The position numbers were made by a program, and so were the translations under genes. The notes below the pieces were generated by a model that saw nothing but the letters and a program-made list of their open reading frames with translations, had not been told where the DNA came from and did no database searches. Source: a virus. Taken from it: 64,000 bases of DNA. Positions within the stretch are counted from its first letter, which is position 1. The number at the start of each line of letters is the position of its first letter. Positions 22,246 through 63,390 of the stretch are shown in pieces. The stretch spans positions 55,737-119,736 of IMG/VR virus record IMGVR_UViG_3300009285_005282, one strand, 5' to 3'.

Positions 22246-23170
22246 CACCTCGGCGGAACAGCGCTTTTTCAGACAGCTCGGGGGTACCGCGGAGCCCCAG
22301 CTCTCCGACAGTGCCTTGCAGGAGCTGGCTGAGGCAGAGGCCGAGAACGACGACGTTCAGCCTGTGGTGGAGTCCCGAGTGGACCCGGAGCCGAAGCCGG
22401 ACAGCGCCCCGGAGGACACCACGCCCTTCGTCCCCCAACGGATGCTGTCAAGCCATGACACCCACCCCCTCGTTCTGGACGCCTTGTTACTACGAGTTTT
22501 CGGACCGGATTGGCTAGGCTGGGAGCCCGAGGCGTTGGCGCAAGAGCTTCGGAGGGTTACCCGGCAGGAGCTCAGCGGAATCAACTGGCAGCAGATCCAG
22601 GCGGTCAAGACTTGCCACCTGGTGGACTCCCCCTGGCGTACTTGGGAGGTGTTCGCGGTGGTGTGTCAGGCGCTGAACAACTGCATCCCCAACTTTCGTA
22701 CGTTACAGGTCCCGACGGTGGCCCAGGTGTTGTGCGCGCTGGACATCATGGGGAGGATTGACAACCATCTGCTGTCCGACGAGGTGGAGCAGTTCATCGC
22801 CGCTACGTTTGTGGAGGAGGGAGTCCACTACCTTCCACCCCCCGCTGACGTCGCGCAGGAGTGGCTCTCCAGGCCGGTGTACCGGTGCACGGTTTGCGGT
22901 CGGGTGGACCGCGACGACTCCAACGACATGTGCGACAGCTGCGGCGCCCCGCAGGACAAGTTGCAACGGGAGCTCACCCGAGACCCGGAGCCGATCCGAA
23001 TTCGTTATGAGGAGTGCTTACAAGACCGGGCGGGGCACTCCGAGCTGCAAGAGACCCCCGTGGATATCCAGGCGGCGCGGCTCCTGGTAGCGCACGACTA
23101 CGTGGTGTTCCGGCGAGCGCAGCTGCAACAGCAAGTAAAGGAGCTGAACCGTGTCCAACTATTCGATTGA
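22238..23170 (+). CDS. Hypothetical virion-cluster protein with Zn ribbon
   Basis: Start MPDTS at 22238; CTVC...CDSC. Confidence 0.65.
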   Translation: MPDTSAEQRFFRQLGGTAEPQLSDSALQELAEAEAENDDVQPVVESRVDPEPKPDSAPEDTTPFVPQRMLSSHDTHPLVLDALLLRVFGPDWLGWEPEALAQELRRVTRQELSGINWQQIQAVKTCHLVDSPWRTWEVFAVVCQALNNCIPNFRTLQVPTVAQVLCALDIMGRIDNHLLSDEVEQFIAATFVEEGVHYLPPPADVAQEWLSRPVYRCTVCGRVDRDDSNDMCDSCGAPQDKLQRELTRDPEPIRIRYEECLQDRAGHSELQETPVDIQAARLLVAHDYVVFRRAQLQQQVKELNRVQLFD

Positions 23171-24017
23171 AATTGCTCGGGTGGAAGCACAGCTGCGCGA
23201 GATGGAGAAACACGCCGTTGACCCCGGATTGATGGCGCGGGCCGGGCAACGGTTTTGGGGTGCTAACCCGTGGTTGGGTCGCGGGCTAGGAATGGCAGGC
23301 GGCGCCGCTACGGGTGGGGGTGTGGGCTACGTTACCGCCAAGGATGAAGCGTCACGTCCCGCAAGTGTCATCCAAGGAGCGATGATCGGTGCTGGGGTAG
23401 GCGCGCTGGGCGGGCAGTTCGCTACCGCCCGGGGGGTAACCCAGGCGAAACACTTCGGGCAGCGCCAGCTCCACGGCGCGACAGGCTATCTCCCCGAGCA
23501 CGGACTGTTCGGGACCAAGAACATGCCCGCCAACGCCGTTGCGGCGCGAGCAACGCGCACCTCCGCGCTCAAGGACATGGGGTTTCACGTGCCCGAGGTA
23601 AAGTCAGTGGAGGAGTACCGCAAGAACCTGACGGCGCCGTGGCTGTTTGGGGGCGCGCGGGCCAAGCTGTACCGGGCGCGGGATCAGGCGCAGCGCACGC
23701 TGGTTGAGGAGAACATGACCAACCTGCCCGGGGTGGCTCGGGGCTACGTGGCACCACGCGAAGGTCTTCGGCGGCGCGATGTGCTTAAGGCCAATCTGCT
23801 GGCGCAGGGCGGTCTGGGGCTAGGGGCGGGTGCGTTGTTCGCCGCCCCTAGCGTGGTGAGTGCGGTACAGCAGCGCGACCCGAAAGAGGGTGTGCGCGCG
23901 CTTGTGGAGAACGCACCGTACATGCTGGCCTCTGCCATTCCGGTTGCGCCGATGATGGCCGCGGGCAGTCTTCTCTCCGCCGGGGTCGGTAGAGTGCTTC
24001 CTCGAAAGGAGCCGTAA
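23151..24017 (+). CDS. Glycine-zipper protein with leader ending EKHA (cargo family)
   Basis: LREMEKHA then GLGMAGGAATGGGVG...GAMIGAGVGALGG. Confidence 0.65.
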   Translation: MSNYSIEIARVEAQLREMEKHAVDPGLMARAGQRFWGANPWLGRGLGMAGGAATGGGVGYVTAKDEASRPASVIQGAMIGAGVGALGGQFATARGVTQAKHFGQRQLHGATGYLPEHGLFGTKNMPANAVAARATRTSALKDMGFHVPEVKSVEEYRKNLTAPWLFGGARAKLYRARDQAQRTLVEENMTNLPGVARGYVAPREGLRRRDVLKANLLAQGGLGLGAGALFAAPSVVSAVQQRDPKEGVRALVENAPYMLASAIPVAPMMAAGSLLSAGVGRVLPRKEP

Positions 24018-24018
24018 C

Positions 24019-26287: not shown

Positions 26288-29200
26288 ATGGCGCGGCTTG
26301 ACCCTAAGGAGAGCTACGAGGCGCTCAAGGATGGGGTGAAGGAGGCTATCTCCAAGACGTTCCCGCACGTGGGGAAGGTCAACACGTTGGAGTTGGAGGG
26401 CATCGACATCCCCGACGAGCTTTCCAGCAGCGACTACGCGGCGCAGAAGCAGGCCAAGCTCAACGAGCGCACCTTCGGTATCCCGGTTCAGGCCACGATG
26501 GTGCTCCGGGAGAACGCTACCGGCAAAGTGCTCGACCGGTCCGTGGTCAAGATCGCCACGTTGCCGAAGATCACCGACCGCTACTCGTACATCACCGCGG
26601 GTACGGAGTACCAGGTGGACAACCAGTGGCGGTTGCGCCCCGGGGTGTACACCAAGGTCAAGCAGAACGGTGACCTGGACTCCTTCTTCAACATCAAGGG
26701 GCGCCCGCTGCACGTCGGGTTCGACCCCAAGACCAGAAAGTTCGATTTTCAGATCGGCGGTGCCGCTCCGCCGCTGTACCCGCTCATGAAAGCGCTTGGT
26801 GTGAGCGACGACACTTTGGAGCGGCAGTGGGGCACGGACATCCTGGCCGCCAACCGAGTGGACACGCGGGGCAAGCCCCACAACCTGCAACGAACGGTTA
26901 TCGACATCGCGCAACGGCTCGATCCTCGGGCGGAGGTTGGGTCCTACGAGCAGGCGGCCTCGGTCATTCGAGCCAACCTAGAAAGCTCGGCGCTGCACCC
27001 GGAGGTCACCCAGCGGACGTTGGGGAAGTCCATCGACCGTATCACCCCCGAGGCGATGCTGCTCTCCACCGGACGGCTGTTGGGGATCGCGAAGGGGAAG
27101 GAGCGGGAGGACGTCCGTGACTCTCAGTTGTTCAAGGACCTGCACAGCACGGAGGACTTCGTCAAAGAGCGCATCACGGGACACGCCAGTGTTATCGCAC
27201 GGCGGGTGGGGAATAACCTGGACCGTAAGGGAAAGATCCGGGAGATCGTCGTCCCGGACGTCTATGACCGCCCCATCCGCGAGTTCTTCGGCAAGGTGTC
27301 GCTGGCCAACTCGGCCGCGCAAACCAACCCGTTACGAATGATCGGCGGGCAGATGCGCACCACCATCGCTGGCGAGGGTGGGGTGGCCGACGCCAACCGC
27401 ATCACCGAAGACGCCAAGTTGGTGGACCCTAGCCACTTCGGAGTGCTGGACCCGCTGCACACGCCGGAAAGTTCAGCCACTGGTGTGTCCTTACAGCTCG
27501 CGCTTGGCGCCCGCAAGCAGGGTAACCGCGTGGTCGTCCCTCTGATCGACGTCAAGGATGGAAAAACCAAGCTGGTGGACACCTCCGTGATGTACGACTC
27601 GACCGTCGCGTTACCGGACTCGGTCAAGAAGCAGGGCGACAAGTTCGTCCCCGTATCCGGGTCCAAGGTCGTGGCGAGTGTGCCCGGCAACGCCATGCTC
27701 CCGGTAGCGATGAAGGACGTGGACTACATCGTTCCGCGCAGCGGGCAGATGTTCTCGATGGCAACCAACCTGGTGCCCTTCATCAACAGCGACTCCCCGA
27801 ACCGGGCGACGATGGCTGGACGCCACATGGAGCAGGCCATCCCGGTGGTGAACAGTGAGCCCCCGCTGGTGCAAAGTATGTTGGGTTCGGTCTCCATGGA
27901 CACGGTCATCGGCCGCTTTGCCTCCACACGGGCGCCATTGGACGGGAAGGTCACGAAGATCACTGCGGATCACATCACCGTGGCCGACGCGGACGGAGTG
28001 GAGAAGCATATCCCCGTCTACAGTCACTTCCCGCTCAACGACAAGAAGGGCTATATCCACAGCACCCCGGTGGTCAAGGTCGGGGACACCGTGAAAAGCG
28101 GTCAGCTCCTGGCGGACAGCAACTTCACGAAGGGCGGCGTGTACGCACCAGGTACGAATCTTAGAACCGCGTATATGACGTGGGCCGGAAGGAATTTTGA
28201 GGATGGAGTAGTTCTTAGCGAAACAGCCGCCCAGAAGCTCGCCAGCGCGCACATGTACAAGAAGGGGCTGGCGACGCGAGACCTGGAGCTCCCTGGCAAG
28301 AAGAAGTATCACGCCTACTACCCGTTGCAGAAGGAGCAGCTGGAAAAGTTGGATGACACCGGCGTGGTCCGGGTCGGGCAGCGGGTCAAGCCCGGCGACA
28401 CCCTGGTGGCTGCGCTCGCAGAGCGAACGCTTACCACGGAGGAGCAGCGGCTCAAGCTGCTGCACAACAGCCTGGTCAAGCCCAAGAAGGATAAAGCAGT
28501 CACTTGGGACGAGGACTACGAGGGGGAAGTCGTCGAGGTGCATCGCACCCCCAAGCGTGTGCAAGTCCACGTAAAGACTGTGGAACCGATGGAGATAGGG
28601 GACAAGCTCTGCTACGACGAACAGACAGATGTCCTGACCCTAACTGGGTGGAAACCCGTGTCCGAGGTGACATGTGAGGACCTTGTGTGCTGCCTGGTTG
28701 GGGAGGAGGTTGTCTACCAGCACCCCATAGCGGTCTTCTCCTATCCCACCGGCGGCCGAATGTACGTGATCCGTTCCCAGCAGGTAGACCTGTTCGTTAC
28801 CGCGGCGCATCAGATGTACGTGCGCTTACGCGGGGCACAGCAGTATCAGTTACTGCCCGCAGAGTCTCTTTTCGGCAAGAGGGTGCGTTACCGCAAGGAC
28901 GGTGTGTGGCGGGGGGAACACCGGCAGAGCATCACGCTTCCAGCGGTGACGGTTCCGGATAGACGTTACAAACTCGGTCAGCGGGACACCGCGCCTCTAA
29001 CGCTGGACATGAGCACGTACCTGCTATTGCTTGGTGCGTTCTTGGCTGACGGAAACTGCGTGTGCATTCCAAACAGCGGAACCTACGGCATCGAGTTCAG
29101 CAAGGTACGGGAACCTAACCGAGCCGAGCTGCGTGCGGCGTTGACCACGGCGGGGATCTCGTGGACGCCAGCTAGCAACAACACGAAAACGCGGCTTCAT

Positions 29201-32200
29201 TCGGTTACGTTGCTTCACCATTTCCAGCAGTTTGGGCATGCTGCGGATAAGTTCATACCGGACGCCATGTTCGGTCTTCCCCCGGAGCAACTCGCGGTGC
29301 TGTTCCATTGGCTGTTCACGTGGGGGGATGGGCACACCAAAAACGGTAAACCTGTTTCTCAAAGTACGGTATCCCCTCGTTTAGCGGACGGTCTGCAGCG
29401 TTTGGCGCTGCACTTGGGAATGGCCGCGAACGTTACCGTGCTTCACGACGCGGGGTTGACGACCATCAAGGGGCAAGAGTGCCATGTTCAAAAAACCTAC
29501 GATGTGCGCATGGTCACAACGAAGCTGCACCCGCAGGTCAACCACGGGCACGTACATCAACAGCGTGCGCAAACTGAGGAGATCGTTGAGGACTACGACA
29601 AGCCAGTTTACTGCGTTATGGTACCAGAGCACGTCATCTACGTCCGTCGTAACGGCAAGCCGGTGTGGAGCGGGAACAGTGGTCGCCACGGCAACAAGGG
29701 AATCACGACCCAGATTCTCCCAGATGCGGAAATGCCCCATGATAGGGAGGGACGCCCAATGGAGATCCTGCTCAACCCCATCGGGTTGGCCGGCAGGATG
29801 AACGTGGGGCAGATTCTGGAGACCGCGGCGGGAAAGCTCGCCGAGAAGACGGGGCAGACCTACCAGGTCTCCAACTTCACCAGCACGGACAACCTGACCG
29901 ACGTGCAGAACGCGCTCAAGAAGGCCGGCATCTCGGACAAGGAGGACCTGATCGACCCCAATACCGGCAAGGTCATTCCTCAGATCCTGGTGGGGAAGCA
30001 GCAGATCATCAAGCTGGAGCACCAGGTAGACAAGAAGATGCTCTCCCGAAGTCGAGACGCCTACGACCACAACCTCGTACCCCGAGGTGGTGGAAAGCAC
30101 GGCGCGCAGTCCTATGGAGCATTGGGGCTGTACGCGCTGTTGGCGCACGGCTCCCGCGCCAACATCCGAGAAGCGCAGACGTGGCGGTCGGACCGGGCGC
30201 AGGGCGGCGACACCGACGAGCTCTGGGGAGCGCTGCAATCTGGCGAGCTCCTCCCACCCCCGCGAAAGACCTTCGCGTACCGGAAGTTCAACGCTTACCT
30301 GAACACCTTGGGGGTGAACACCGAGAAGGACGGAAACTCGCTGACCCTGGTGCCGATGACCGACAAGCAGGTTCTGGAGATGTCCAACGGCGAGCTCACC
30401 GACGCGGGGAGGGTGCTGCGGATGAAGAGCCTAACGCCGGAGCCAGGGGGGCTGTTCGACGAAAAGATCACCGGTGGCTTGTCTGGTCAGAAGTGGGCGC
30501 ACCTCACCCTTACCCACCCAGTCCCCAACCCGTTGTTCGAGAAGGCGGTCATGAGCCTGGCTGGAATCCGCGGTCCGCAGTTCGATTCGCTGATCCAAGG
30601 GCAGAACGGAGTGACCGAGCAGGGAGCGATCGTCGGTCCGGGGGTGCAGGGTGCGCTCTACGGCCCCCAGTCGATCGAACGTTTGCTGTCCAAGGTGAAC
30701 GTGGGCACGGAGTTGGAGCGGGAGACCGCACGACTGCCTCGGCTCAAGGGGCAGCTGCTCAATGAAACGGCGCGCAAGGTAAAGTACCTACGGGCGCTGC
30801 AGAAGGCCAACCTGACTCCGGTCGACGCCTATATGACGAAGCACGTTCCAGTGCTGCCCCCCGCCATGCGCCCGGTGTCGGTGATGGATGACGGGTCGTT
30901 GCAGACGGACGACCTCAACCAGATCTACAAGTCGCTGGCGTTGGTGAACCAGCAAGCTGGCGCCTTTCCCGAGGGGACGCCGTGGTCGCTCAAGGCGCCA
31001 GTCGCGGCGAGCGTGTACGACCACGTGAAGTCCCTAGCCGGTCTCGGGGGCTCGCTCAACCGCAAGCACCCGGGCATCCTGGACATCATCGCTGGGCGTA
31101 ACAGCCCGAAGGAGGGCTACGCGCAAGCGGTGCTCATCAAGCGCAAGCAGGACCTTACCGCACGCAGCACCATCGTTCCCGACCCGGGGCTGGCGTTGGA
31201 TGAGGCGGCGCTGCCCCGCAAGCTCGCCAAGGAGATGTACAAGCCCTTCATCGTGGCGGAGCTGCGGCGGGCGACCGGGCGCAGCCCCTTGGAGGCCAAG
31301 GAGCTGATTGACAAGGATGACCCGCTTGCAGTGAGCGCACTGGACCGGGTGGTACAGCAGCGGCCTGTCCTACTGAAGCGGGACCCCGTGCTGCACAAGT
31401 ACGGTGTGCAGGCGTTCAAGCCGCGACTCACCGACGGGCGAGCAATCCAGATACACCCGCTGGTGTGCAGCTCGTACAACGCTGATTTCGACGGGGACGC
31501 CCAGGTAGGAGCGGTGTTTGCTTTCCTCCCAAATGCGTTATATGATGCAGAATGTGGCTTCTGGTCACAGCGGGAGGTAGGGATGACGGCGCGATTTCAA
31601 GAGACAGTGAGCTATGACACCGAGGGTGGTCATATGGTCATATGTGACCTGAAAGACTTCCCCCACCTGGAAGCGAAGACCACTCGGGGGCATATCGACT
31701 ACCACCCGGTGCCCGTGGGGGTCAAGGTGGTAGCCCTCGACGAACGGGACGGGCCGGTGTTGGCGGAGGTGACCGGCTGGTCACTCCATCGGAAGCGGCG
31801 GGTAGAGATTGTAACATTGGGTAGCGGGCGGCAAATCGTCACCGACGACGACGAGCGTGCCGTGTACGGGGTTGACGCGTCCTCACTGGAATGGTGTCGC
31901 CGTCGCCCTCGGGAAGCGCGGGACCAGTTTGTCCCGGTCGTGGATCAGACACCCGTGTCAGACGTGGTCCAGTGGAAGACCTGGCCAGTAAGATCCAGTA
32001 GTCCTCGGCTGCACGCTCAAGTGCCGGGAAACTTCGACTTTGGCTATTTTCTCGGCGCCATCGTGGGCGACGGGTGGGCAGCCCGCGTAGACGGGGACCC
32101 ACATGACGTGTGCCTGGGTTCCTCGATTGCGGAAGTCAGCAAGCGCTGGACTGACGCGGCGCAGGTGCTGTTTCAAGAGCCAGTGGCCTCGTGCTGGATA

Positions 32201-35026: not shown

Positions 35027-35028
35027 CA

Positions 35029-35430
35029 ATGGATCGCGCTTCGGAGATCATGTACCGAGCGTTCTTCGACGAGTTGGGGCACATCGAACGACACCGGCTG
35101 TCCAAACTGGCGGTAGATGCAGCAGCGGCTGCACAGCTCCCCGGTTTCATGAGCCGTGTCGGGCAAGGGTTGGTCAACCTGGGACAGCACGGGGCCGGTG
35201 CGGCAGGTAAGGCGATTCGTGCTGGGTACACCAACGCCGCCCAAGGCTTTGCAAAAGCCAACCCCGACGTGGGCTGGGTAGGACGGAACTGGCAGGGCGT
35301 GAAGGGCGCGCTACGAACGCCCGAAGGGGCAGCTGCCGCTCTCGGCGCCGGTGTGCTCGGCACGACCGCAGTCGGTGCTGGTGGGCTGGGCTACTTGCAC
35401 GGACGCAGCACAGCGGCCCCGCGGTACTGA
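35029..35430 (+). CDS. Glycine-rich protein with AFFDEL...SKLA leader (cargo family)
   Basis: GGAGG RBS; C-terminal ALGAGVLGTTAVGAGGLGY. Confidence 0.7.
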   Translation: MDRASEIMYRAFFDELGHIERHRLSKLAVDAAAAAQLPGFMSRVGQGLVNLGQHGAGAAGKAIRAGYTNAAQGFAKANPDVGWVGRNWQGVKGALRTPEGAAAALGAGVLGTTAVGAGGLGYLHGRSTAAPRY

Positions 35431-38808: not shown

Positions 38809-38812
38809 CCCC

Positions 38813-40796: not shown

Positions 40797-40870
40797 CCCT
40801 ATCGAGCTGGCTGGGTTGTACGAATGGTGCTGACGCCCCCCCACGCAAGTCTGTCTACGCGGTTATTCCT

Positions 40871-40916
40871 AGCTAAATGGATGCGTGGGGTGACCAGCCG
40901 TCCTCCCGCGCGTCCA
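40871..40916. terminator. Hairpin at convergence of + and - blocks
   Basis: agctaaa then tggatgcgtgggg...cccgcgcgtcca (pairs better on + strand via G-U). Confidence 0.5.
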
Positions 40917-49133: not shown

Positions 49134-49525
49134 CCTCACACGGTTTGCTGCAAGCAGCAGAGATGGTTCGCCGTACGCTGGAGAAGCAAGCGGCCCTGGC
49201 GGATGCTACGGTCAACGCCGGCCGCGCCACTGGTGGTGCGATGGGGGCGTTGTACAACCTCGCCGGCACGGCAACGAAGGAAATCGGCGGGGGTACGCAG
49301 CACGTGCTCCGCCACATTCCCTACGTCGGTCCGGCTATTGGGTGGGGTGCGAACGCCGCTATCCGTGCGGTACCCTGGGCAGCCGGTGCTTACGGCGCGG
49401 TCAAGGCGGATGACGCCGCGGGACAGCCTGTCCGCGGAGCAGCGCGTCAGCTGTGGTTGGCGCATAAACTTCGACAGGCGCAGCGGGGGGCGACGTTCGA
49501 CCCGAACATGGGGGTGATGTACTGA
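49127..49525 (+). CDS. Gly/Ala-rich protein with leader ending EKQA (cargo family)
   Basis: AGGAGGAG RBS; RRTLEKQAA. Confidence 0.65.
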   Translation: MLTSHGLLQAAEMVRRTLEKQAALADATVNAGRATGGAMGALYNLAGTATKEIGGGTQHVLRHIPYVGPAIGWGANAAIRAVPWAAGAYGAVKADDAAGQPVRGAARQLWLAHKLRQAQRGATFDPNMGVMY

Positions 49526-50322: not shown

Positions 50323-53300
50323 TCGTCAAGCAATGCCAGTTCGCGGGGCGGGATGACACTGGGGAGCATATCCACCTTCTTCACCCCGGGTATGACAATT
50401 TCGAGCTCATGAAAACTGCCTCCGAGGAGGTCTCCCCACCGCAGCTCGAACGGGTGCGGGCGTTGATGCGCGATCTACCTCGGGAGACTGGGCGACTGTA
50501 CGCGCTGATCAGCGCCTTGGGAGCTTCCGAGTACTGGGGCTCGAATTCAAACGCTGATGACTTCGACACGGAGGCATTGGTGCGTGTACCGCCCGGTTGG
50601 TGGGAGCTACCCTACGAACAGCAGGTGCAGCTTGGAAAGAGGTGGGAGTGGGGATTCCCGACCTTTTACAACGCACATCTTTTCGCACACCACTGCTTTG
50701 TTGGGGGCACGCCAATCGTTATGGGGGACCGCACGCGCATCCCTATTGACCGGGTTCGTGCCGGTGACCTTGTGGCTACGCGAACAGGTCCCAAGAAGGT
50801 CACCCGCACTACTTCAAGAAAGTACGTCGGTGTTGGCACAGCGCTGACATTACAAGGGGTAGACACCCCGTTAGTTGGGACGCCGGACCACCCTGTTCTG
50901 GTACTGCGCCGTAAACAGGTTCATTGTCGCCACAAGTACAATAAGCTCGCGGCGTCAGAGCACCTAGCGCAGTGTGTGCAGGCACGAGAACCGATAGGTG
51001 CCCCTCAATGGGTGCCATTGGGAGAGGTACAGTTGGGAGATTACCTCCTAACGCCCGGTCCTATAACCGGAATCGAGACGCTTGAGCCTGAGTTTGCAGA
51101 GCTAGTAGGCTGGGTGGCCGCGGACGGGTATCTCGGCAAGAGGGGAACTATTCAATTTTCGTTTTCTTCAACGGGGGAAAAGCTAACATTGGTTGAACAG
51201 TGCCTTCGACGGAACAAATTACACGTAGGTGTGACCCCCCGTCTGCAGTACGGCGTGACGATGCTCAGCGCGTGCAGCGCAGCGCTCTCAAAACGCGTGC
51301 GTTGCTACGTAGTTGGGACAACTTCCGAGAAGCGACTAACCGCTGAAGTTCTCAAGTGGGACGTCGAAGCAAGACTGCAGTTGATTGGCGCCTATAGTGA
51401 CGGAGACGGATGTGTAACACCGGCAGAACTGCCTAACCGGGGGCAACTTCGGATTCGTAGCGCGTCCTCTCAAATGCTCTTTCTTCTTGCGGACTTAGCC
51501 CGTTCTCTGGGGGTGGCCGGAAGTATAAATTGGGATAGTCCCAGCGGTCCGATGATTTCTCCAACAAACGGGAAACAGTATTGGGGCGGTCCTTCCGGCT
51601 GTCTGGCGGTTGGGGCTAGCGGCGCAGCGGACCTGCTCAAGACCTGTCAGCGACTCAAGCCCGTAGCTCCGTATAGAAATTGCAGAGTTTACCCGTTTGA
51701 AGGCAGCATGTTCCTGGTGAAGGTGGTAGACAGCGATCCGGTTGAATTGAACGAGAACGTGTTCAACCTGGAGGTTGAAGATGAGCATGAGTATATCGCC
51801 AACGAAGTAGTCGTTCATAACTGTAACAAAGATCCCAATCGAGCGTTCGGGGACATTATCCATTCCGATTGGGACTCCCGAATGCACCGGGTGCTGCTCG
51901 TTGGCGCGTTTGACCACGATCGCGCACGTCGGTTTGGCGGACAGTCCGCGGTCGAACGTCTGGAGAACGGGGAATACCTTTCGGTCTCGATGGGTACAAA
52001 AGTTCCTTTCGATCTTTGCAGCTACTGTGTGGACTACGCTCGGGTGCTTCCACTACGCCCCCACCCCCAGCAAATTTTAGCTGAGCATCGCCAGAACCCA
52101 ATACGCGGTCTGAACGTCACCATCCGTGACTACTGCGAACACCTACGTCGGGAGAAGAACCACATTTACCCCAACGGGGTACGGGTCAGTATGCTGAACT
52201 GGCATCCACGTTTCTTCGACCTGTCCTGCGTGTTTGTGGGTGCCGACAAAACCTCGTTCGTCCTGGCCAAACTTGCGCACGAGTGCCCAATCCGTCCGGG
52301 GGTCAAAGAGTGTGGTAACTGCCCCCACGAAGAGTGTGTTCCATCGGCCCACGTACACGAGGTCTGGAGCAGGGACATGCAGAAAACAGCGAGCCCCACT
52401 GTGGACCTGCTAGCGCAGCGCCTTCAAGAGGCACGGGCCAAAACCGCTACCGCCAACAAGTCGGCGTTCGACAAGCAGTCGGAGATCTACAAGGACGTTC
52501 CTCCCAACGTGGGTCAGGTGCTGGCGCCGGTCACGGACGCCGAGCCCGACCTTCCAGAGGAGGTTGTGCGGGAGATGGCCCAGGACCCGGAGAACACACT
52601 GGCCTCCGGGCTGTCGATGGGGGTCATCGCCAAACCTCACGAGTTCCAACGGGTGATGCTCCACTCTACCAGGCGCGGTGACCTGGCTGAGGACTTGGAG
52701 CAACGCGGGTTGACGTTCCGTACCGGCGCACCTCCAGAGGGGTTCTGCCTGGGACGGGAGCTCCTCCCGCGCATCCTGGAGCTGCTTCTACCGTTGGTGG
52801 CGGCGCGCAGTATGCTGTCGCGTCCGCTGGCCAAACGAATCATCGCCACCGGCGGGCGAACGGGGGACATGATCCACCTCCACCTACGCGCCGACGCTGA
52901 CACACCGGACGCGGCGTTGGAGATGGCCTTTCAGAAGTGGTTGGGCGCTCGTCGTGAAGCCAACCGTACCCGCACGGCGTTGGAGGACCCGCTCATGGAC
53001 AAGCTGAGCGCAGCGTACTCCGCCTACCGGCGCGACGCGGTTTACGCAGCACCGGAGCTGCTGCGTCGAGGACTGTTGGAGCACACCAAGCTAGCGGAAG
53101 CGCTGTGTGATAGCGACCTTTACACCCCCGGGCTTGCCAAGACGGCGGGGGACGTGCTTGAATTAGTTGGAATGGCGTCCGTCGCGTACCTCAACGGAGC
53201 ATATTTGAAGGAACCTGCTTCGCAGTATGTGGCGACGCACTGTAACCTGTCCGGCCTGGAAAAGGCAGCCGGACTAGCACGGCTGAGTGGGGTCGCGTAG
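50319..53300 (+). CDS. Prohead maturation protease (HK97/assemblin-like) with intein and KxA-rich C-terminal extension
   Basis: ATGA overlap at 50319; spliced FAHH|CNKD...VSMGTKVPFDLCSYC...FFDLSCVFVGAD; upstream of capsid. Confidence 0.75.
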   Translation: MIVKQCQFAGRDDTGEHIHLLHPGYDNFELMKTASEEVSPPQLERVRALMRDLPRETGRLYALISALGASEYWGSNSNADDFDTEALVRVPPGWWELPYEQQVQLGKRWEWGFPTFYNAHLFAHHCFVGGTPIVMGDRTRIPIDRVRAGDLVATRTGPKKVTRTTSRKYVGVGTALTLQGVDTPLVGTPDHPVLVLRRKQVHCRHKYNKLAASEHLAQCVQAREPIGAPQWVPLGEVQLGDYLLTPGPITGIETLEPEFAELVGWVAADGYLGKRGTIQFSFSSTGEKLTLVEQCLRRNKLHVGVTPRLQYGVTMLSACSAALSKRVRCYVVGTTSEKRLTAEVLKWDVEARLQLIGAYSDGDGCVTPAELPNRGQLRIRSASSQMLFLLADLARSLGVAGSINWDSPSGPMISPTNGKQYWGGPSGCLAVGASGAADLLKTCQRLKPVAPYRNCRVYPFEGSMFLVKVVDSDPVELNENVFNLEVEDEHEYIANEVVVHNCNKDPNRAFGDIIHSDWDSRMHRVLLVGAFDHDRARRFGGQSAVERLENGEYLSVSMGTKVPFDLCSYCVDYARVLPLRPHPQQILAEHRQNPIRGLNVTIRDYCEHLRREKNHIYPNGVRVSMLNWHPRFFDLSCVFVGADKTSFVLAKLAHECPIRPGVKECGNCPHEECVPSAHVHEVWSRDMQKTASPTVDLLAQRLQEARAKTATANKSAFDKQSEIYKDVPPNVGQVLAPVTDAEPDLPEEVVREMAQDPENTLASGLSMGVIAKPHEFQRVMLHSTRRGDLAEDLEQRGLTFRTGAPPEGFCLGRELLPRILELLLPLVAARSMLSRPLAKRIIATGGRTGDMIHLHLRADADTPDAALEMAFQKWLGARREANRTRTALEDPLMDKLSAAYSAYRRDAVYAAPELLRRGLLEHTKLAEALCDSDLYTPGLAKTAGDVLELVGMASVAYLNGAYLKEPASQYVATHCNLSGLEKAAGLARLSGVA
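50694..51821 (+). mobile_element. Intein 4 (376 aa) with LAGLIDADG endonuclease in protease
   Basis: CFVGGTPI..., TPDHP, VGWVAADG, GAYSDGDG, ends VVHN with +1 Cys. Confidence 0.92.
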
Positions 53301-53351
53301 GATCGGACGATCCAGAGACCGCCAACCTGCTGGCCGGTAGGAGAGGATGAG

Positions 53352-54188
53352 ATGAACGAGTTTTTGGCGAATTACTACGGTACCGTAGCCCAAACGCAGG
53401 CCCCTTCCGCCAACGACGAGTTGGAGAAGATGGCCGAACTGACCCTGCTCGCGCAGGAGGCCCAAGCTCAGGGCCTGTCCCTGGAAGGCGTTCCCGAGGA
53501 CGAGCTGCTCAAGATCGCCCACGACCTGTACGGCGGCCCGGACGCCCAGATGGAGAAGGACGCCGAGGCCATGTTGAGGGAGTTCGAGCTCGGCGGGCAG
53601 ATCATGGCCCACGCCTTCACTCGGGAAATGCAAGAAATCGAGAAGGCCGCCGGGATCGGAGAGTGGGCAGGTCGAGCGGGGACTGCGATCAAGAACGCTC
53701 CCGGAACGGTCGCGGAGCATCTCGGTGCGCCTCTCATGGACAAGAGGACGGTAGCGCAGGCTATCGCAGAGTCGCGAGAGGCGGCACGTCAGACCGCCGG
53801 TGCCGCTTACGGCAGCTTGTCCCCCACGGCACAGCGGGAGTTCGATCAGCACGCGCACACGCTAGCCAGTCAGCGGCTGAGCGCGGCGGCACGCAAACGC
53901 GGGTACGCTGCGGCCGGAACCGCGACCGGAGTGGCGGGGCTGGGCGGTGGGGCGATTGCCCTACGCAACCGCGGCAACTCCGAAGAGATGCCCAAGGAGG
54001 GAGCGGCCTTCGATCAACTGGTCGCGCAGCGCGCCTACGAGCACCTGAAGACCGCCGGCTACGACGCCGACGCCTTCTTCGGTGTCGACCAGACGAAGAC
54101 CGCTGCGGATGAGCTGAACATGGCAGTCGACACCGCCGCCCTCCAGTTCTTGGAGGCTCACGGCGTGCCGGTGCAGTGGAATCGCTGA
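53352..54188 (+). CDS. KxA-rich head protein with internal Gly-rich cassette
   Basis: 7 of 10 lysines in K-x-A. Confidence 0.7.
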   Translation: MNEFLANYYGTVAQTQAPSANDELEKMAELTLLAQEAQAQGLSLEGVPEDELLKIAHDLYGGPDAQMEKDAEAMLREFELGGQIMAHAFTREMQEIEKAAGIGEWAGRAGTAIKNAPGTVAEHLGAPLMDKRTVAQAIAESREAARQTAGAAYGSLSPTAQREFDQHAHTLASQRLSAAARKRGYAAAGTATGVAGLGGGAIALRNRGNSEEMPKEGAAFDQLVAQRAYEHLKTAGYDADAFFGVDQTKTAADELNMAVDTAALQFLEAHGVPVQWNR

Positions 54189-54195
54189 GCAGGAC

Positions 54196-54468
54196 ATGCT
54201 TCGGGTGGAGTATCTGGCAGCAATGATGCGTGAGTTGCTCAAGATGGCAGCTAGCCCCATCGGTGCGGTCAGAGCCCCAACGGTGCCTGGTGTACCGTTG
54301 GGGCGACTCACCCCGAAAGCTCCTGTACCGGTGACTCCGAACTTGGCGAAGGGCGCACCTGGAATGGTGCAACGGACAAATTACACCGCGGTCGCCGCTC
54401 GACCAGCGGCAGTGAATCACGAGCTCACCGCCGGGCAGAAGGCCATGCCGCTCCCAGTGGTGCAGTGA
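54196..54468 (+). CDS. Small Pro-rich protein with RELLKMA leader
   Basis: YLAAMMRELLKMAA. Confidence 0.6.
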   Translation: MLRVEYLAAMMRELLKMAASPIGAVRAPTVPGVPLGRLTPKAPVPVTPNLAKGAPGMVQRTNYTAVAARPAAVNHELTAGQKAMPLPVVQ

Positions 54469-54479: not shown

Positions 54480-55907
54480 ATGTTGTCCCTCAACGATCTA
54501 ATCCAGCAAGCGCTGCTGGATGGCCGTCACGGGGCGCTCTCCAAGATCGCTGAGGAGACGTCCGGTGAGGCAAGCAGCGAGTCCTGTGTCGATTGTGGCC
54601 GACCCGCCATTCCGGGCCAACAGCTCTGTCAGGACTGTGCCCAGCGGCGACTCGGCTCGGAGCAGGCAGCCGCGGCCACCAGCGAAGTCGAGAAGACCTC
54701 TTCGGCGCGAGTGGAGCGGCTGGCGAGCGCGGTCGACTTTGCGCTGCGTAACCCGTCCTGGGTAAGCAGCTACGTGAAGCTGGCCGAGGGTGATGGCCCC
54801 GGTGAGGGCGCGGGGGCGCTCGACATGGACCTGACAGCGCCCACGGTCGGCCTTGGTCCGGCCTCTTACCAAGGGTCGAAGGTCAACGCTATCCCGCTGA
54901 CCCCCCCGATGGAGTCCGGCGTGGCTGGCGGGCCGGCCACGGCGATGGGCACGGATATGGACGATACCCCCGGCGGGACCGAGTCTGGTGTGACCAACAA
55001 CATGGGGTCTGCCAAGGTGGCAACGTCGGCTCTCGGTGGCGCTATAGCCGGTGGTCTGCTGGGTACGGGTGTAGGAGCCGGTGTTGGGGCGCTGAGCGCT
55101 CCGAAAGGGCAGCGAGCGGAGGGGGCACGTCGCGGGGCGTTGATCGGGAGCGCCACGGGACTCGTAGGTGGGGGTCTTACGGGGGCAGCTGCCGCGAGCC
55201 GTCTAGCACGTACGCCTGAGGAGGCGCGTACGCTGCAGGGGATGCGCGAGCTGGGGTTCAGAGCGGGCCGCGGCGACCAGGTAGCGCAGCAAACGCTGCA
55301 AGAAGCGCAAAAAATTCTCCGAACGCCGGCCCCGAGGGAACGCGGTGCGAGCATTGCGGGCGCCATCATCGGCGCGGGGGGTGCTATCGGCGGGGGTATC
55401 GCTGCTGGACGTACCGTTCGCAGGCCCGATGCGGAGCAGGTGTCCCCCAAGGTGGCAGCGATACATCGTGTGATGCTCAAACGGGCTCAGCCCGAGGCAG
55501 AAAGTGCTCTACCGGAGAACCGGCCAGATCCGATGGTGCGCCCGGCGGAGGCAACCAGCCAGATGAAGCTGCTCGCGACCAACGAGGCAGCGATCAACTT
55601 CACTCCTCGTGATGCGGCTGTGGTGCCGAAGAAGCAAATGGGCGAGATGCTCGACGAACCCATGCAGAGCGCCTTGGGGGATTCAGCCCTCAAGGATCAG
55701 CTCGGCGCGGCGCTCGTCAACGAAGCTGGGGCCAAGGTCGCCAGCGCGCGACAGACCGTAGCTTCGCTGCTGAAGGTTGCGGGTGAGGGTTGCTCTTGTG
55801 GCTCCCACGGAACCTGCACCTTCTGCAAGGTTGCTTCATTGGCCGAACGGAAGCGGGCTCGACAGGCCGGTGTCGGGAACGCAGTCGTTCCAACGCGGGG
55901 TCGGTAG
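54480..55907 (+). CDS. KxA-rich head/scaffold-like protein with glycine-zipper cassette and Zn motifs
   Basis: 9 of 17 lysines in K-x-A; CVDC..CQDC; CSC...CTFC. Confidence 0.7.
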   Translation: MLSLNDLIQQALLDGRHGALSKIAEETSGEASSESCVDCGRPAIPGQQLCQDCAQRRLGSEQAAAATSEVEKTSSARVERLASAVDFALRNPSWVSSYVKLAEGDGPGEGAGALDMDLTAPTVGLGPASYQGSKVNAIPLTPPMESGVAGGPATAMGTDMDDTPGGTESGVTNNMGSAKVATSALGGAIAGGLLGTGVGAGVGALSAPKGQRAEGARRGALIGSATGLVGGGLTGAAAASRLARTPEEARTLQGMRELGFRAGRGDQVAQQTLQEAQKILRTPAPRERGASIAGAIIGAGGAIGGGIAAGRTVRRPDAEQVSPKVAAIHRVMLKRAQPEAESALPENRPDPMVRPAEATSQMKLLATNEAAINFTPRDAAVVPKKQMGEMLDEPMQSALGDSALKDQLGAALVNEAGAKVASARQTVASLLKVAGEGCSCGSHGTCTFCKVASLAERKRARQAGVGNAVVPTRGR

Positions 55908-55916: not shown

Positions 55917-56276
55917 ATGGAAAAGGTTTCAGCACAACAAGTCCTACGCGTGCTCCGAGAGGTGCCCCCTACCCTTCGTAAGCTCGCTGCCGAGCGTGAC
56001 CAGCTCGCCCAGGAGAACCATCAGCTCCGAACGAAGCTGAACCAAACTCTCCTGAACGACCGGGTCGAGAAGCTGGCGCACGAGCTGCACGCCAAACACC
56101 TGCATCAGGGACGCTCCATGGCTCAGACCAGGGAGATCCTGTTGCAGAAGGCGGCGAGTGGCGATCTGCGGGTGGTCGAGGAGGCGATGAAGATCGCTGC
56201 CTCCCCGTCCGTACTGGGATCGGTGGGTGAGGTGCCCTCCGGAGGGAACCGACTGGAGGAGTTCGTTCTCAGCTGA
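55917..56276 (+). CDS. Putative scaffolding protein
   Basis: Coiled coil, KLA/KAA/KIA sites, two genes before capsid. Confidence 0.55.
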   Translation: MEKVSAQQVLRVLREVPPTLRKLAAERDQLAQENHQLRTKLNQTLLNDRVEKLAHELHAKHLHQGRSMAQTREILLQKAASGDLRVVEEAMKIAASPSVLGSVGEVPSGGNRLEEFVLS

Positions 56277-56793: not shown

Positions 56794-57927
56794 ATGAGCG
56801 CAATACCGAATGATGTGTTCAACCGTCTCTTCATGGACAAGCTCAGCACCACCGAGGGTCAAGAGAAGATCGCGGAGTACGGTGGCGAGTACATCCGTGA
56901 CCACCTGCGTGAGGCGCAGTTCTCCCGAGGGATCATCCCGCCGGAGAACATTTCCGCGAACGACCCGCGGGTTCAGATCTCCATGAATCACGACACCCTG
57001 GTCGTCTTGGAGATGCTGGAGCCGCAAAGTCGAGCCATGGCGCTCAACTTCCGTGGTGTCGCGGACGTGCAGCTCATCCGGGCGTCCCGCATGGAGATCC
57101 CGTTCTTCATGATCAGCAGCCTCCGGTTTGAGGCTTACGAGGAGGAGTTGCTGGTGTACCGCAACTTCAAACTCACCAAGATCCTGGAGGACAACCTCGG
57201 CAAGGACATCGGAGACGTCGAGGACCGTGAGTTCACGATCCACGTCGACGCCGCCGTCCAGGCCCTGCAACAGGAGGCGAATGGCGGGGTGGTGACGTCG
57301 CTGCACCAAACCACCATTGCGGCCGGCACCGTCGTGGAGACGGGGGTGCGCAAGGGTGAGCTCGCCCGAGTAGACGCCAACAACAACGCCGTGGTGTGGC
57401 CAATGCAACGGCCCGACGTCGTCAGCGGCCACAAGCTGCTCGACGGTACTCGGCGGCGGTGCGAGAAGGTCCTGCTCAGCGAATCGGACTTCGACGACAT
57501 CAACTCCTGGACCATCGACGACATGGGCTCGCCCAAAGAGTCGGAGTCTCTGATCGACGGGTTCAAGGGTCCGACCCTCATTGGACGCGGCTACGTGCGG
57601 ACCATCAAGACCGAGATCCTCAAGCCCGGCAACCTCTACTTCTTCACCGGGCCGGAGTGGCTGGGGCGGTTCTACATCCTGAACAACGTGAAGTTCTACA
57701 TCGACAAGGTGGGGAACAAACTCACGTTCTTCGCGTGGGAGGACATCGCCCTGTCACTGGTCAACATCGCCAGCGTGCGCAAGGTCGAGACCTACTCGGG
57801 TGACGCTACCGCGAACGACGCCAACGGCATTCGGGCAACGGTAAGCCCGGTCGCCGAGACGGCGCTTGGGGCGCAGTTCAACCGAGTGGACGACGGGGTG
57901 TTCTTCCCGCAGGTCAACTTCTTCTAG
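56794..57927 (+). CDS. Major capsid protein (probable HK97 fold)
   Basis: GAGGAG RBS; 377 aa; follows protease/scaffold; strongly biased codons; followed by strong terminator. Confidence 0.75.
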   Translation: MSAIPNDVFNRLFMDKLSTTEGQEKIAEYGGEYIRDHLREAQFSRGIIPPENISANDPRVQISMNHDTLVVLEMLEPQSRAMALNFRGVADVQLIRASRMEIPFFMISSLRFEAYEEELLVYRNFKLTKILEDNLGKDIGDVEDREFTIHVDAAVQALQQEANGGVVTSLHQTTIAAGTVVETGVRKGELARVDANNNAVVWPMQRPDVVSGHKLLDGTRRRCEKVLLSESDFDDINSWTIDDMGSPKESESLIDGFKGPTLIGRGYVRTIKTEILKPGNLYFFTGPEWLGRFYILNNVKFYIDKVGNKLTFFAWEDIALSLVNIASVRKVETYSGDATANDANGIRATVSPVAETALGAQFNRVDDGVFFPQVNFF

Positions 57928-61790: not shown

Positions 61791-61799
61791 GCTGTTTGA

Positions 61800-62681
61800 A
61801 TGCTGCGTGTCACCAACCTAGCGGTCCGGTCTTTGGACGTTGACTACCTGGACCTGTTCTGGGAGGTAGAGAACACGTTCGAGGACCCGCTGGACTTCAC
61901 CTTCGTTGTGGAGCGCAGCGAGTCCCCGTTGGGTCCGTGGGACCCGGTGTCCGAGCCCTTCTCCGACCGCTACTTCTTTCGTGACGTCGTCATTCCGTCC
62001 TTCAACCGTTACCGAAAACTGTGGTACCGCATCCGGGTCACCCGCATTCTGGATGACAAGGTAGCCTACTCCGAGATTGACACGCGTGGCCCGGAGCCGG
62101 ATCTCATTGCCTTGGAGGTACGCAGGCAGGAGTTACTGCTCTTTCAGGAGCACATTGGGCGACAGGTGTGGATCTTTCCGATCCGCACGTTTGGCCAGCG
62201 TTGCCCGGCCTGCTACGACCGGGTCCAGCGCGTACGGCTCAAGTCGGCGTGCCTCACCTGCTACAACACGGGGTTCACTCGCGGGTTCATGGACCCTATC
62301 GTGTCCTGGGTGCAGATCGACCCTGCGGTAGAGGTCACTCAGCCCGGACCGTTGATGCAGGACCAGACCCAGAACGCCACTGCTAGATTGCCCTGGTTCC
62401 CGCCGCTCAAGACCGGTGACGTAATCGTGGAGGCGGAGAACGTTCGCTGGGCGGTCAACCCCGTGACCACCACCCAACGGCTGCGAGCGCCACTGCACCA
62501 AGAGGTCACCATACACCACATCCCGGAGTCCGATATTGAATACCGGCTCCCGATCAACATCGACAGCTTGCGGGAACTGCAGCCCAACCCCAAACGGGTC
62601 TTCACCAACCCTCACCATCTGCGTTCGGGGACCTACGTGGACCTGCGAACCGACGAACTCAAAGGATACGACTATGAATAA
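61800..62681 (+). CDS. Putative neck/head-closure protein with FN3-like N-terminus and Zn motif
   Basis: VTNLAVRS...LFW...FVVERSES; RCPAC...CLTCYNTGF. Confidence 0.55.
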   Translation: MLRVTNLAVRSLDVDYLDLFWEVENTFEDPLDFTFVVERSESPLGPWDPVSEPFSDRYFFRDVVIPSFNRYRKLWYRIRVTRILDDKVAYSEIDTRGPEPDLIALEVRRQELLLFQEHIGRQVWIFPIRTFGQRCPACYDRVQRVRLKSACLTCYNTGFTRGFMDPIVSWVQIDPAVEVTQPGPLMQDQTQNATARLPWFPPLKTGDVIVEAENVRWAVNPVTTTQRLRAPLHQEVTIHHIPESDIEYRLPINIDSLRELQPNPKRVFTNPHHLRSGTYVDLRTDELKGYDYE

Positions 62682-63390
62682 CCTACAAGCCCGCGCTTTC
62701 GTTATTGAGCTAGCAGAGCTGGAAAAGTTGGGGCGGACAGGCTCGATCCGACGTGTCTGGGCAAGGCACGCTCCTGCTATCGTAGCCGGGACTGGTGCCG
62801 TACTGGGAGGAGTAAGCGGGGCGCTACACACCGACAACGAAACCCCAAATCCGACAGTGGCGCAGCGAGTACGCAACGCCGCGCTATCGGGTGTGGTGGT
62901 TGGGTCATTGGCAGGGCTAAGTGTGCACGGCATCCGTAGGTTGAAGCGAGCTATGGCGTACGCCCCCAATGCTCAGCTTCGTGCGGCACGGGCTGTTCGG
63001 GAGAACAAGCTGTCGCCGTCGCTCGAGCGCATGATTGACGATTTTGACTTGGCGCAGGCCAAGAAACGCGCCCTGGCGAAGACCGCTACAGAGCAAGTGC
63101 AGCCGCAGCGGCGGGGGACGAACAGCGAAGAGTTCAAGCAGTTTCTCAAGAACACTGGCTACATAGCTCTCGGAACGGGAGTTGGTGTTGGAGGGATGAC
63201 GCTGCTTCGCCCAGTTGCCGAGAAGTACCTGCCCCGAGTCCCCAAGAATATACTGACCCCGGCGGTGGCGCTCACTACTACGGCTGCTGGGGTTGGCGCC
63301 GCCGAGCTCCTACGGCGGTTGGCAGAGCGTAAACGGCAAACGCTCGACGAGGCGTACGAGCGCGGCGAAAGGATGCGGCGTGGCGAGTAA
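62674..63390 (+). CDS. Glycine-zipper protein with AFVIELAELEKLG leader (cargo family)
   Basis: Two hydrophobic Gly hairpins separated by AKTA. Confidence 0.65.
   Translation: MNNLQARAFVIELAELEKLGRTGSIRRVWARHAPAIVAGTGAVLGGVSGALHTDNETPNPTVAQRVRNAALSGVVVGSLAGLSVHGIRRLKRAMAYAPNAQLRAARAVRENKLSPSLERMIDDFDLAQAKKRALAKTATEQVQPQRRGTNSEEFKQFLKNTGYIALGTGVGVGGMTLLRPVAEKYLPRVPKNILTPAVALTTTAAGVGAAELLRRLAERKRQTLDEAYERGERMRRGE

Follow-up and report, generated by a model that had tools for sequence, protein, structure and literature searches.

A conserved N-terminal leader ending in L-x-K-x-A as a candidate propeptide cut by the head protease in a group of uncultured phages

In bacteriophage T4, genes for small core proteins, the protease, the scaffold and the capsid protein follow one another, an order also found at the locus described here, and the protease cuts at the motif (L/I)-x-E. 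T4 capsid-targeting sequences of 10-20 residues are carried by IPI-III, Alt and gp24 and removed by gp21. In encapsulins, by comparison, a short terminal cargo-loading peptide brings diverse cargo into an HK97-fold shell; it is uncleaved, has a different motif and involves no protease, unlike the leader proposed below. According to passages of two papers, short N-terminal propeptides of 10-24 aa are cut off by the head proteases of T4 and of SPN3US/phiKZ at a motif specific to each phage, and the T4 propeptides act as capsid-targeting sequences (PMC5694885, PMC10052503). Passages of the second paper give the SPN3US motif as A-X-E and describe two substrates with propeptides of 20-24 aa, most SPN3US propeptides being long, 111-254 aa (PMC10052503).

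We analysed a window of 64,000 nucleotides from an IMG/VR virus record, in which a preliminary description had proposed a leader, F-x-x-E-L-x-K-x-A, shared by a dispersed family of glycine-zipper proteins. All nine peptides that it cited were recovered at their coordinates in plus-strand open reading frames. Seven are true N-terminal leaders, with ends 14-28 residues into the protein; the other two are an internal copy in 53352 and an unsupported C-terminal copy in 656. Six of the seven (23151, 35029, 40065, 49127, 49525 and 54196) end in K-x-A, and the seventh, 62674, ends in K-L-G. What the leaders share beyond chance is the core L-x-K-x-A; within the window, only 40065 matches the exact string. 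The homologous family did not hold up: when 18 window and genome proteins were compared all against all by BLASTP, one low-complexity match was returned. Searches of the literature found no description of an L-x-K-x-A leader.

All features given here lie on the plus strand. The leader at 23151-23216 (aa 1-22, ending E-M-E-K-H-A) opens a basic Gly-zipper protein of 288 aa and pI 10.4 (23151..24017), encoded directly upstream of a portal-like gene. Its orthologue in G001, a 95% complete related genome, begins ...QLDEMEKIA (37% identity), and a protein atlas look-up of 23151 was uninformative, with best scores of 0.79-0.85. Directly 3' of the RNA polymerase gene, a basic Gly/Ala-rich protein of 133 aa (35029..35430) carries the leader ...AFFDELGHIERHRLSKLA (aa 1-28, 35029-35112), and its G001 orthologue begins ...YSAFFDELGEIEKRRILTKVA. 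The best match to the long leader of relatives, MNFQGFADELFKIA (aa 1-14, 40065-40106), stands at the head of a gene (40065..40796) interrupted by an in-frame TAG at 40170-40172, whose cargo part is very basic (pI 11.8). Read through with X at the stop, residues 6-233 align with an intact 224-aa ORF in the relative L073 (E 1e-23). Recoding of this stop codon was rejected because no tRNA gene was found in the genome and TAG is the ordinary stop of 37 of the 117 called genes.

Further downstream, a basic Gly/Ala-rich protein of 132 aa (49127..49525) has a leader of aa 1-22 ending T-L-E-K-Q-A; the small proteins syntenic to it in six relatives retain L-x-K-x-A while the remainder diverges. The adjoining 265-aa protein (49525..50322; leader aa 1-19, ending E-Q-V-K-T-A) contains a single hydrophobic stretch and, at 50041-50180, a 14-aa tandem repeat, and a basic Pro-rich protein of 90 aa (54196..54468) has a leader of aa 1-18 ending E-L-L-K-M-A. 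The degenerate leader MNNLQARAFVIELAELEKLG, with its K-L-G end, belongs to a basic Gly-zipper protein of 238 aa and pI 11.0 (62674..63390), whose G001 orthologue (E 2e-8) has the canonical MIDFSAFSDELVKIA. The C-terminal copy proposed in a 187-aa Gly-zipper protein of the tail-fibre region (656..1219) is unsupported: its elements come in a different order, with K-T-A ahead of F-T-T-E-L-L-R-M-S, and no G001 orthologue of the protein was found. Two other C-terminal copies were set aside, one in 58090, not conserved in 2/2 orthologues, and an unsupported one in the genome ORF 52978-53700.

The first 45 residues of the 117 called proteins contain 20 copies of [LM]-x-K-x-A where 7.4 are expected (binomial p=1.2e-5); 31 further copies lie elsewhere. 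The leader genes cluster in the head module, [LMIFV]xKxA lying in the first 45 residues of 14 of the 30 plus-strand proteins at 21079-63000 but of 9/87 elsewhere (Fisher p=6e-5). The motif in the site logo is L-x-K-[LTVI]-A with a small residue after it: position -2 of K-x-A is L in 35/84 sites and M in 8/84, and position +3 is A, G, S or E in 51/84. Across orthologues K and A are fixed and the flanks drift, and K-x-A positions are conserved at 50-65% identity. K-x-A is also 3-8 times over-represented in seven head-region proteins relative to composition-preserving shuffles (observed/shuffled 10/1.5, 11/2.4, 9/1.2, 9/3.5, 7/2.0, 9/2.6 and 4/0.7), and lies near the shuffle expectation in most other proteins of the genome. 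The motif with its position, conservation and enrichment is a direct observation, as is the protease fold described below.

The preliminary description had named a lack of conservation of the leader as a result that would refute its idea; K and A are kept in orthologues, and a longer leader recurs in G001 and elsewhere in IMG/VR. Seven G001 genes, five of them in one array, begin with the 15-residue MID[FY]xAFxDE[LMF]xKIA and an eighth with a close variant. The cargos are unrelated to one another, and the similarity among the paralogous leaders stops exactly after the Ala. Serines in these leaders are encoded by both AGY and TCN codons under an unchanged peptide, which argues for selection on the peptide and not on the RNA. 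A scan of IMG/VR for F-x-D-E-L-x-K-I-A gave at least 121 distinct matches, mostly N-terminal. Of the matches listed, 115 have an upstream stop, and 61 of these place the motif no more than 15 codons from the farthest possible start. Among the same listed matches, the residue preceding F, unconstrained by the pattern, is A, S or G in 98/121, and the medians for the cargo are 112 aa in length and +6 in net charge.

These observations bear on the explanation that the leaders have no function and resemble one another as Lys/Ala/Leu-rich helices, through gene duplication or by chance. The degeneracy of the window leaders, of which one fits the full pattern, and the non-conserved C-terminal copies speak for it, as does the more distant complete relative G004, whose leaders are short (MNPITLLKLA, MFDLDLIVKAA) and where 14 N-terminal occurrences across the genome, with 10.4 expected, make no significant excess (p=0.14). 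The shuffles, the K-x-A positions held in orthologues, the unrelated cargos, the synonymous variation and the biased flanking residue all stand against it, and this explanation, already disfavoured, is extremely unlikely.

A protease with the gp21 fold and the capsid and scaffold-like proteins also have the L-x-K-[LTVI]-A core conserved at their N-termini. In the major capsid protein (56794..57927), K25-I-A27 lies just ahead of a conserved G-G-x-Y-I-R-D-x-L-R-E block, and K25 and A27 are invariant in 10/10 orthologues. This protein has 25% identity over 324 aa to gp226 of Salmonella phage Arash, annotated as major capsid protein, and a weak PHROG major-head match (E 6.7e-4). A structure model from a 10-row alignment was unusable (pLDDT 34.6), so the capsid assignment rests on synteny, the PHROG match and the identity to the Arash protein. 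Nucleotide and protein searches against cultured phages returned no match for the capsid protein or the 35000-41000 stretch. The acidic scaffold-like protein (53352..54188, pI 4.9) contains the internal leader copy AHAFTREMQEIEKAA and 7 K-x-A against 2.0 expected.

Other proteins of the region are similarly rich in K-x-A. The 274-aa protein at 48309..49133 has 9 against 1.2 expected, and its first site, L-L-G-K-R-A (aa 16-18), is conserved in eight relatives. A 475-aa protein with Zn-ribbon-like Cys pairs and Gly zippers (54480..55907; 9 against 2.6) has the N-terminal site A-L-S-K-I-A, and a helical protein of 119 aa (55917..56276; 4 against 0.7) has T-L-R-K-L-A (aa 22-24), conserved in 7/7 aligned sequences. 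The 656-aa protein at 36838..38808 (11 against 2.4) has its first site, P-L-Q-K-V-A, at aa 12-14; orthologues of it were present in 5/5 related records searched directly, whereas an earlier related-locus search had found none. A 388-aa protein (21079..22245) has 10 against 1.5. By contrast, the fused beta-beta' RNA polymerase of 2912 aa (26288..35026), which lies in the head module and contains intein and homing-endonuclease domains, has no conserved leader, residues 18-20 being K-E-A in the window and Q-E-S in G001; the tag is therefore not needed for every putative cargo.

The gene at 50319..53300 would supply the recognising enzyme. By sequence, comparison of its product with Pfam, PHROGs and PDB gave nothing relevant, no part of the genome matched Peptidase_S77 (PF03420, 27-bit cut-off) at E<=10, and Pfam found no protease family in two intein-free orthologues. 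An AlphaFold2 model (mean pLDDT 83) and fold searches instead point to a prohead protease of the herpesvirus/T4 gp21 (assemblin) type. VIA-align against 48,161 chains placed the model closest to the VZV protease (Z 9.6, 119 aligned) and T4 gp21 (5jbl; Z 9.6, 133/165 aligned, rmsd 3.0), with HCMV protease at Z 7.1 and the next, unrelated row at 5.3; the top Foldseek rows were the same families, weakly (E 0.027-0.1). H125, S181 and D189 are invariant in 55 sequences. An intein occupies aa 126-501 (nt 50694-51821), right after an invariant His-His and directly after H125, and intein-free orthologues exist. The predicted protease itself has an N-terminal K-T-A at aa 32-34, with K32 and A34 at least 90% conserved in those 55 sequences, and more K-x-A sites past the domain. 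Here, as in Arash and Bacillus phage G, its gene has portal-side genes on one side and the genes for scaffold and capsid on the other, and the family comprises 2,214 cluster representatives at E<=0.001.

We therefore favour, at a probability of about 0.62, the explanation that the leader is a propeptide cut by the phage's own head protease and marks internal head proteins. The conserved end, L-x-K-[LTVI]-A plus a small residue, would be the recognition site of the 50319-53300 product. The same K-x-A site is present in the protease itself, in the capsid and scaffold-like proteins and in several head-region proteins with many internal copies. We infer cutting, the exact bond, loading, ejection and the role of the cargo as follows. 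Tagged proteins would enter the core of the assembling prohead, the protease would trim them at K-x-A, and the basic Gly/Ala-rich mature parts would remain inside with the DNA and exit with it at infection. The amphipathic helix A-F-x-D-E-L-x-K-I-A probably adds an address function, like the 10-residue T4 capsid-targeting sequence.

The leader system would thus be a new-motif variant of the T4/phiKZ scheme. As in T4, a short N-terminal peptide, here of 14-28 aa, sits on unrelated, often basic proteins and ends at a motif, presumably cut, shared with the capsid protein, scaffold and protease, and the modelled protease fold is the same. The differences are the motif, L-x-K-x-A instead of (L/I)-x-E, a much longer, intein-bearing protease undetectable as Peptidase_S77 by sequence, and a leader that forms a widely conserved 15-residue helix on mostly Gly-zipper cargo. 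With phiKZ, SPN3US and 201phi2-1 (protease gp175/gp245) the phage shares large size, many internal head proteins and multiple, here putative, cuts within propeptides. A polymerase lies among the head genes, as in SPN3US, where it is virion-packaged. Here it is, however, one fused beta-beta' chain versus five split subunits, the motif differs from A-X-E, and no shared portable leader is described for those phages.

The closest cultured carriers of the protease family are Arash, an orphan myovirus of 180.8 kb (36% identity), and Vibrio phages D69, D148 and D181 (34-36% with Arash included), where the protease is annotated only as a structural or hypothetical protein. K-x-A occurs at the N-termini of their capsid proteins and proteases, in Arash also at those of neighbouring proteins, and their neighbours are K-x-A-rich; they differ in having split beta and beta' subunits, and no long A-F-x-D-E-L leader was seen in the stretches of these genomes that were read. 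The 48309 and 49525 proteins are weakly similar to Arash gp220 and gp221 (the latter at E 7e-6), and these distant homologues are among the proteins that passages of the Arash paper report from a virion preparation, along with RNA polymerase subunits, a sigma factor, a helicase and the rest of gp220-225; the preparation yielded 116/272 proteins and is hence not specific (PMC10585845). The same passages report no cleavage sites (PMC10585845).

Alternatively, the leader could be an uncleaved docking peptide, its L-x-K-x-A helices binding the scaffold or the inner face of the capsid shell, with internal copies serving multivalent binding and not as cutting sites. Models for such docking are encapsulin cargo-loading peptides and the P22 scaffold C-terminus. 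The multiple copies in scaffold-like proteins and a conserved amphipathic helix longer than the minimal motif would fit, and the table among the Arash passages gives 100% 'coverage' for gp221, gp223 and gp224, some of them tagged, which, if literal, places their N-termini in the preparation (PMC10585845). The motif, however, also has a conserved position within the protease and at the N-terminus of the capsid protein, a T4/phiKZ-like substrate pattern, and the similarity of paralogous leaders ends sharply at the Ala, making uncleaved docking unlikely. A complex prediction paired the protease domain (alignment A1) with the first 40 residues of a leader protein encoded by the same relative; its score of 0.00 (mark 0.32) speaks neither for nor against an interaction.

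The nature of the cargo invites another explanation, in which the leader serves a different cellular step: it might direct small Gly-zipper proteins with a role in lysis or superinfection exclusion to the membrane or into secretion, or be recognised by a chaperone or import system. Several cargos do have marginally hydrophobic Gly-zipper stretches, with highest 19-residue Kyte-Doolittle means of 0.9-1.7, and the zipper pattern occurs in 48/115 cargos among the IMG/VR matches listed. Yet the leader is acidic and amphipathic, without a hydrophobic core (the 35-aa 40065 peptide peaks at a 19-residue hydropathy of 0.48), and so lacks the basic N-region and hydrophobic core of Sec/Tat-type signal peptides. 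Soluble enzymes carry it as well, namely a sigma factor of this genome and the SNF2 helicases of the IMG/VR matches L037 and L050. Together with the clustering in the head module and the motif on capsid protein, scaffold-like protein and protease, this makes such a step very unlikely.

The glycine-zipper cargo of the preliminary description needs a similar qualification: most cargos are basic and Gly/Ala-rich, but 54196 is Pro-rich and 53352 acidic and scaffold-like. Against the Pfam glycine-zipper families PF13441, PF13488 and PF05433, only 656-1219 among 10 window ORFs or ORF parts gave a match, below the cut-off (17.7 versus 28.9 bits), and a cassette in the L002 protease scored 22.6 against 28.9. 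A leader-only homology search, with residues 1-40 of an L002 protein, had a bacterial Gly-zipper lipoprotein as its sole match, through the zipper and not the leader. The stretches in the window are zipper-like in pattern only, and the high pI is no less compatible with internal proteins that bind DNA than with membrane peptides. What survives in silico of the proposed portable tag, as opposed to its putative loading function, its putative removal and the putative membrane insertion or entry-channel role of the cargo, is a short tag on otherwise unrelated, mostly basic Gly/Ala-rich proteins that ends at the motif also found on the gp21-fold protease and on the capsid and scaffold-like proteins. 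A bolder version is speculative and rather doubtful: the 15-residue A-F-x-D-E-L-x-K-I-A helix would be a self-sufficient address by which a very large uncultured phage group loads a fast-changing capsid arsenal (the sigma factor here; SNF2 helicases and basic Gly-zipper arrays in relatives), which, once trimmed and ejected, would establish transcription of the phage together with a conduit through the membrane or a protective compartment.

If the propeptide explanation is true, an N-terminal leader ending in L-x-K-x-A would predict which proteins ride inside the virion, a rule that would extend to a large group of phages, entirely uncultured and 120-200 kb in size, that encode their own RNA polymerase. 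The protease would represent a divergent branch of the gp21/herpesvirus-type capsid proteases with a new specificity, and the 15-residue tag would be a candidate handle for loading foreign proteins into the capsids of cultured relatives.

Many proteins of the head region carry a leader, a short N-terminal helix ending in L-x-K-x-A (the K-x-A site). All nine peptides cited in the preliminary description were recovered at their positions; seven are truly N-terminal, whereas the other two are not N-terminal leaders. In the seven leaders, the first K-x-A (K-L-G in the protein starting at 62674) ends 14 to 28 residues after the start. Among 117 proteins called with a codon-usage and RBS scorer blind to the motif, [LM]-x-K-x-A occurred 20 times within the first 45 residues, against 7.4 expected, and 31 times elsewhere (p = 1.2e-5). 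The more relaxed [LMIFV]-x-K-x-A was present within the first 45 residues of 14 of the 30 proteins encoded on the + strand between 21079 and 63000, the head module, compared with 9 of 87 in the remaining genome (Fisher p = 6e-5). Outside the window, leaders were also found in g32605 (...AFRSELGKIA) and at the N-terminus of a sigma-70-type factor recognized by Pfam (...AAELEKLA; G000:C1:33372-34130 of the same genome). The 1461-aa SNF2 helicase encoded upstream of this factor (g28223, G000:C1:28223-32608) starts with M-T-E-K-I-G, with no upstream room for a longer leader. G004, a complete relative at greater distance, has short K-x-A leaders clustered in its head module; over its genome as a whole, the N-terminal excess lacks significance (14 versus 10.4 expected, p = 0.14). 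A literature search, conducted mostly at the level of abstracts and passages, returned no description of this leader.

The leader behaves as a portable unit. The closest complete relative is G001 (167,832 bases, 95% complete), in which the 15-residue M-I-D-[FY]-x-A-F-x-D-E-[LMF]-x-K-I-A opens seven genes. Five of these lie in a single array, and the orthologue of 35029 bears a close variant. When the seven copies were aligned, similarity ended exactly after the alanine, and the cargos are unrelated. Synonymous codons differ under the fixed peptide (for serine, AGY or TCN depending on the copy), and therefore selection acts on the peptide. A scan of IMG/VR with F-x-D-E-L-x-K-I-A, the leucine codon being fixed as CTN, yielded at least 120 stretches, 120 of which were analysed, and at least 121 distinct matches. 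Among the 115 matches listed with an upstream in-frame stop in the locus, 61 lay within 15 codons, and 70 within 25 codons, of the farthest possible start. In 98 of the 121 matches listed, alanine, serine or glycine occupied the position before the phenylalanine, which the pattern left free. Among the matches listed, the part following the alanine measured 112 residues and carried a net charge of +6 (medians), and a G-x-x-x-G-type zipper pattern was present in 48 of 115. Two of the matches listed, in loci L037 and L050, are SNF2 helicases with a full leader.

The window makes up the final 64 kb of a virus record of 119,736 bases (CheckV completeness 68%, G+C about 62%). Its + strand carries the head and virion module between roughly 21 and 63 kb. 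This module comprises a putative portal with a weak match (24019-25878, +), a large terminase with an intein (41991-45089, +) and a putative capsid protein (56794-57927, +), whose assignment rests on a weak PHROG match, a 324-aa alignment at 25% identity with the protein annotated as capsid protein in the cultured Salmonella phage Arash, and synteny. Capsid proteins sharing 49-64% identity with it are encoded at sixteen IMG/VR loci, the longest contig reaching 196 kb; searches for cultured-phage matches returned none for the capsid protein and none at the DNA level for the 35000-41000 stretch. Inside the module, directly upstream of a leader gene, a single ORF (26288-35026, +) encodes a fused beta-beta' RNA polymerase of 2912 aa without a conserved K-x-A site. 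Two inteins are probable in this polymerase because it matches LAGLIDADG, intein-splicing and homing-endonuclease domains. On the stretch separating the terminase from the head genes, the minus strand encodes two 321-aa paralogues made of 15-base (pentapeptide) repeats (45392-46357 and 46422-47387). Elsewhere in the genome lie three paralogues starting with M-N-A-[FY]-E-W-G-L-A-H-x-S-C-P-x-A-L (G000:C1:705-1340, 10796-11395 and 24584-25276) and, also outside the window, two ORFs built of V-A-K-I-G/S-type repeats (1342-1653 and 18491-18814).

K-x-A is not confined to the leaders. A logo built from 84 sites in 23 proteins reads L(-2) x K [L/T/V/I] A [A/G/S/E]. Seven proteins hold far more K-x-A than composition-preserving shuffles, namely those starting at 21079 (10 observed, 1.5 expected), 36838 (11, 2.4), 48309 (9, 1.2), 50319 (9, 3.5), 53352 (7, 2.0), 54480 (9, 2.6) and 55917 (4, 0.7), whereas for most of the remaining proteins of the genome the count is close to the expected value. 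The capsid protein has the motif at residues 25-27, invariant in 10 of 10 orthologues, and a conserved block comes right after it. The position of the motif is likewise kept in the orthologues of 48309, 49127, 49525, 53352, 54196, 54480 and 55917, with variable flanking residues. In a 564-aa protein (59782-61476), with orthologues of 533-879 aa in relatives, K-x-A sites occur together with several Gly-zipper stretches and a Gln-rich coiled-coil stretch; one site is M-T-K-Q-A, with K-x-A at aa 37-39.

Fold and conservation identify the 993-aa product of 50319-53300 (+) as a putative prohead protease. Its sequence has no match in Pfam, PHROG or PDB. An AlphaFold2 model built from 55 sequences (mean pLDDT 83) was aligned structurally against 48,161 PDB chains: the top match was the varicella-zoster protease (Z 9.6, rmsd 3.3, 119 aligned), together with T4 gp21 (Z 9.6, rmsd 3.0, 133 of 165 aligned) and the HCMV protease (Z 7.1), followed by an unrelated chain at Z 5.3. 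Foldseek placed the same protease families on top, weakly (E 0.027 to 0.1). Across the 55 sequences, H125, S181 and D189 never vary, conservation of K32 and A34 is 90% or higher, and two more lysine columns downstream of the domain are nearly invariant; fold and conservation would point to catalysis, with H125 and S181 as candidate catalytic residues. A 376-residue intein (aa 126-501, nt 50694-51821) lies directly after H125, and intein-free versions occur in relatives such as L002; the large terminase bears an intein as well. The N-terminal 310 residues belong to a very large family, with 2,214 cluster representatives found at E<=0.001 among 1.84 billion library proteins; many of these relatives are matched in two or three stretches, an indication that inteins are common at this insertion site. 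In the protease of the related locus L002 (4445-6622), two K-x-A sites downstream of the catalytic domain flank a Gly-zipper cassette (22.6 bits against the Pfam Gly-zipper, below cut-off); the window protease has a different sequence at this position. Around the protease, the gene order is a K-x-A-rich protein, two small leader proteins, the protease, an acidic scaffold-like protein, small proteins and the capsid protein, parallel to the order of the T4 core genes. The protease homologues in Bacillus phage G and Arash are located between the portal and capsid genes. Examined by fold, conservation and enrichment, K-x-A would be the site at which the head protease cuts.

The T4 cleavage motif is (L/I)-x-E, as opposed to L-x-K-x-A here. 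In the passages of PMC5694885 and PMC10052503 that deal with them, the capsid-targeting sequence of T4 and the short propeptides of SPN3US match the leader scheme described here, but the SPN3US motif is given as A-x-E (PMC10052503). Further differences from both systems are a very divergent, long and intein-bearing protease, a leader that is a widely conserved 15-residue helix, and a cargo of mostly basic Gly/Ala-rich proteins.

The Arash protease is 36% identical across 80% of the domain and belongs to the same family, and K-x-A sites are present in the Arash capsid protein, protease, scaffold-like gp223, gp220 (10 sites) and Gly-zipper proteins gp221, gp224 and gp213; the cultured Vibrio phage D69 displays the same pattern. 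The Arash virion preparation, as listed in the relevant passages of PMC10585845, contains 116 proteins, including gp213, gp216-218 and gp220-226, as well as both polymerase subunits and a sigma factor, with no N-termini given there. This list is compatible with virion residence, but is not specific, because 116 of 272 annotated features were detected. Its "100% coverage" entries, if literal, count against complete leader removal.

The cargo differs from the dispersed glycine-zipper family initially proposed: the tagged proteins of the window are not paralogues, and two of them are Pro-rich (54196) and acidic (53352). A C-terminal leader copy in 58090 is missing from both orthologues examined. 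The 40065 leader gene is split by an in-frame TAG at 40170-40172; with an X bridging the stop, the read-through sequence aligns from end to end with an ORF that is intact in the related locus L073. Either a nonsense mutation, or a variant of the assembly, or a sequencing error accounts for the TAG, no sign of stop-codon recoding having been found. The leader protein at 49525-50322 contains a 42-base tandem repeat (3.3 copies, 50041-50180) encoding a 14-residue E-H-G-W-K-G-... repeat. The glycine zippers make membrane activity of the cargo possible, but its hydropathy is marginal. The high pI and abundance of the cargo proteins fit DNA-associated internal proteins that would be ejected with the genome.
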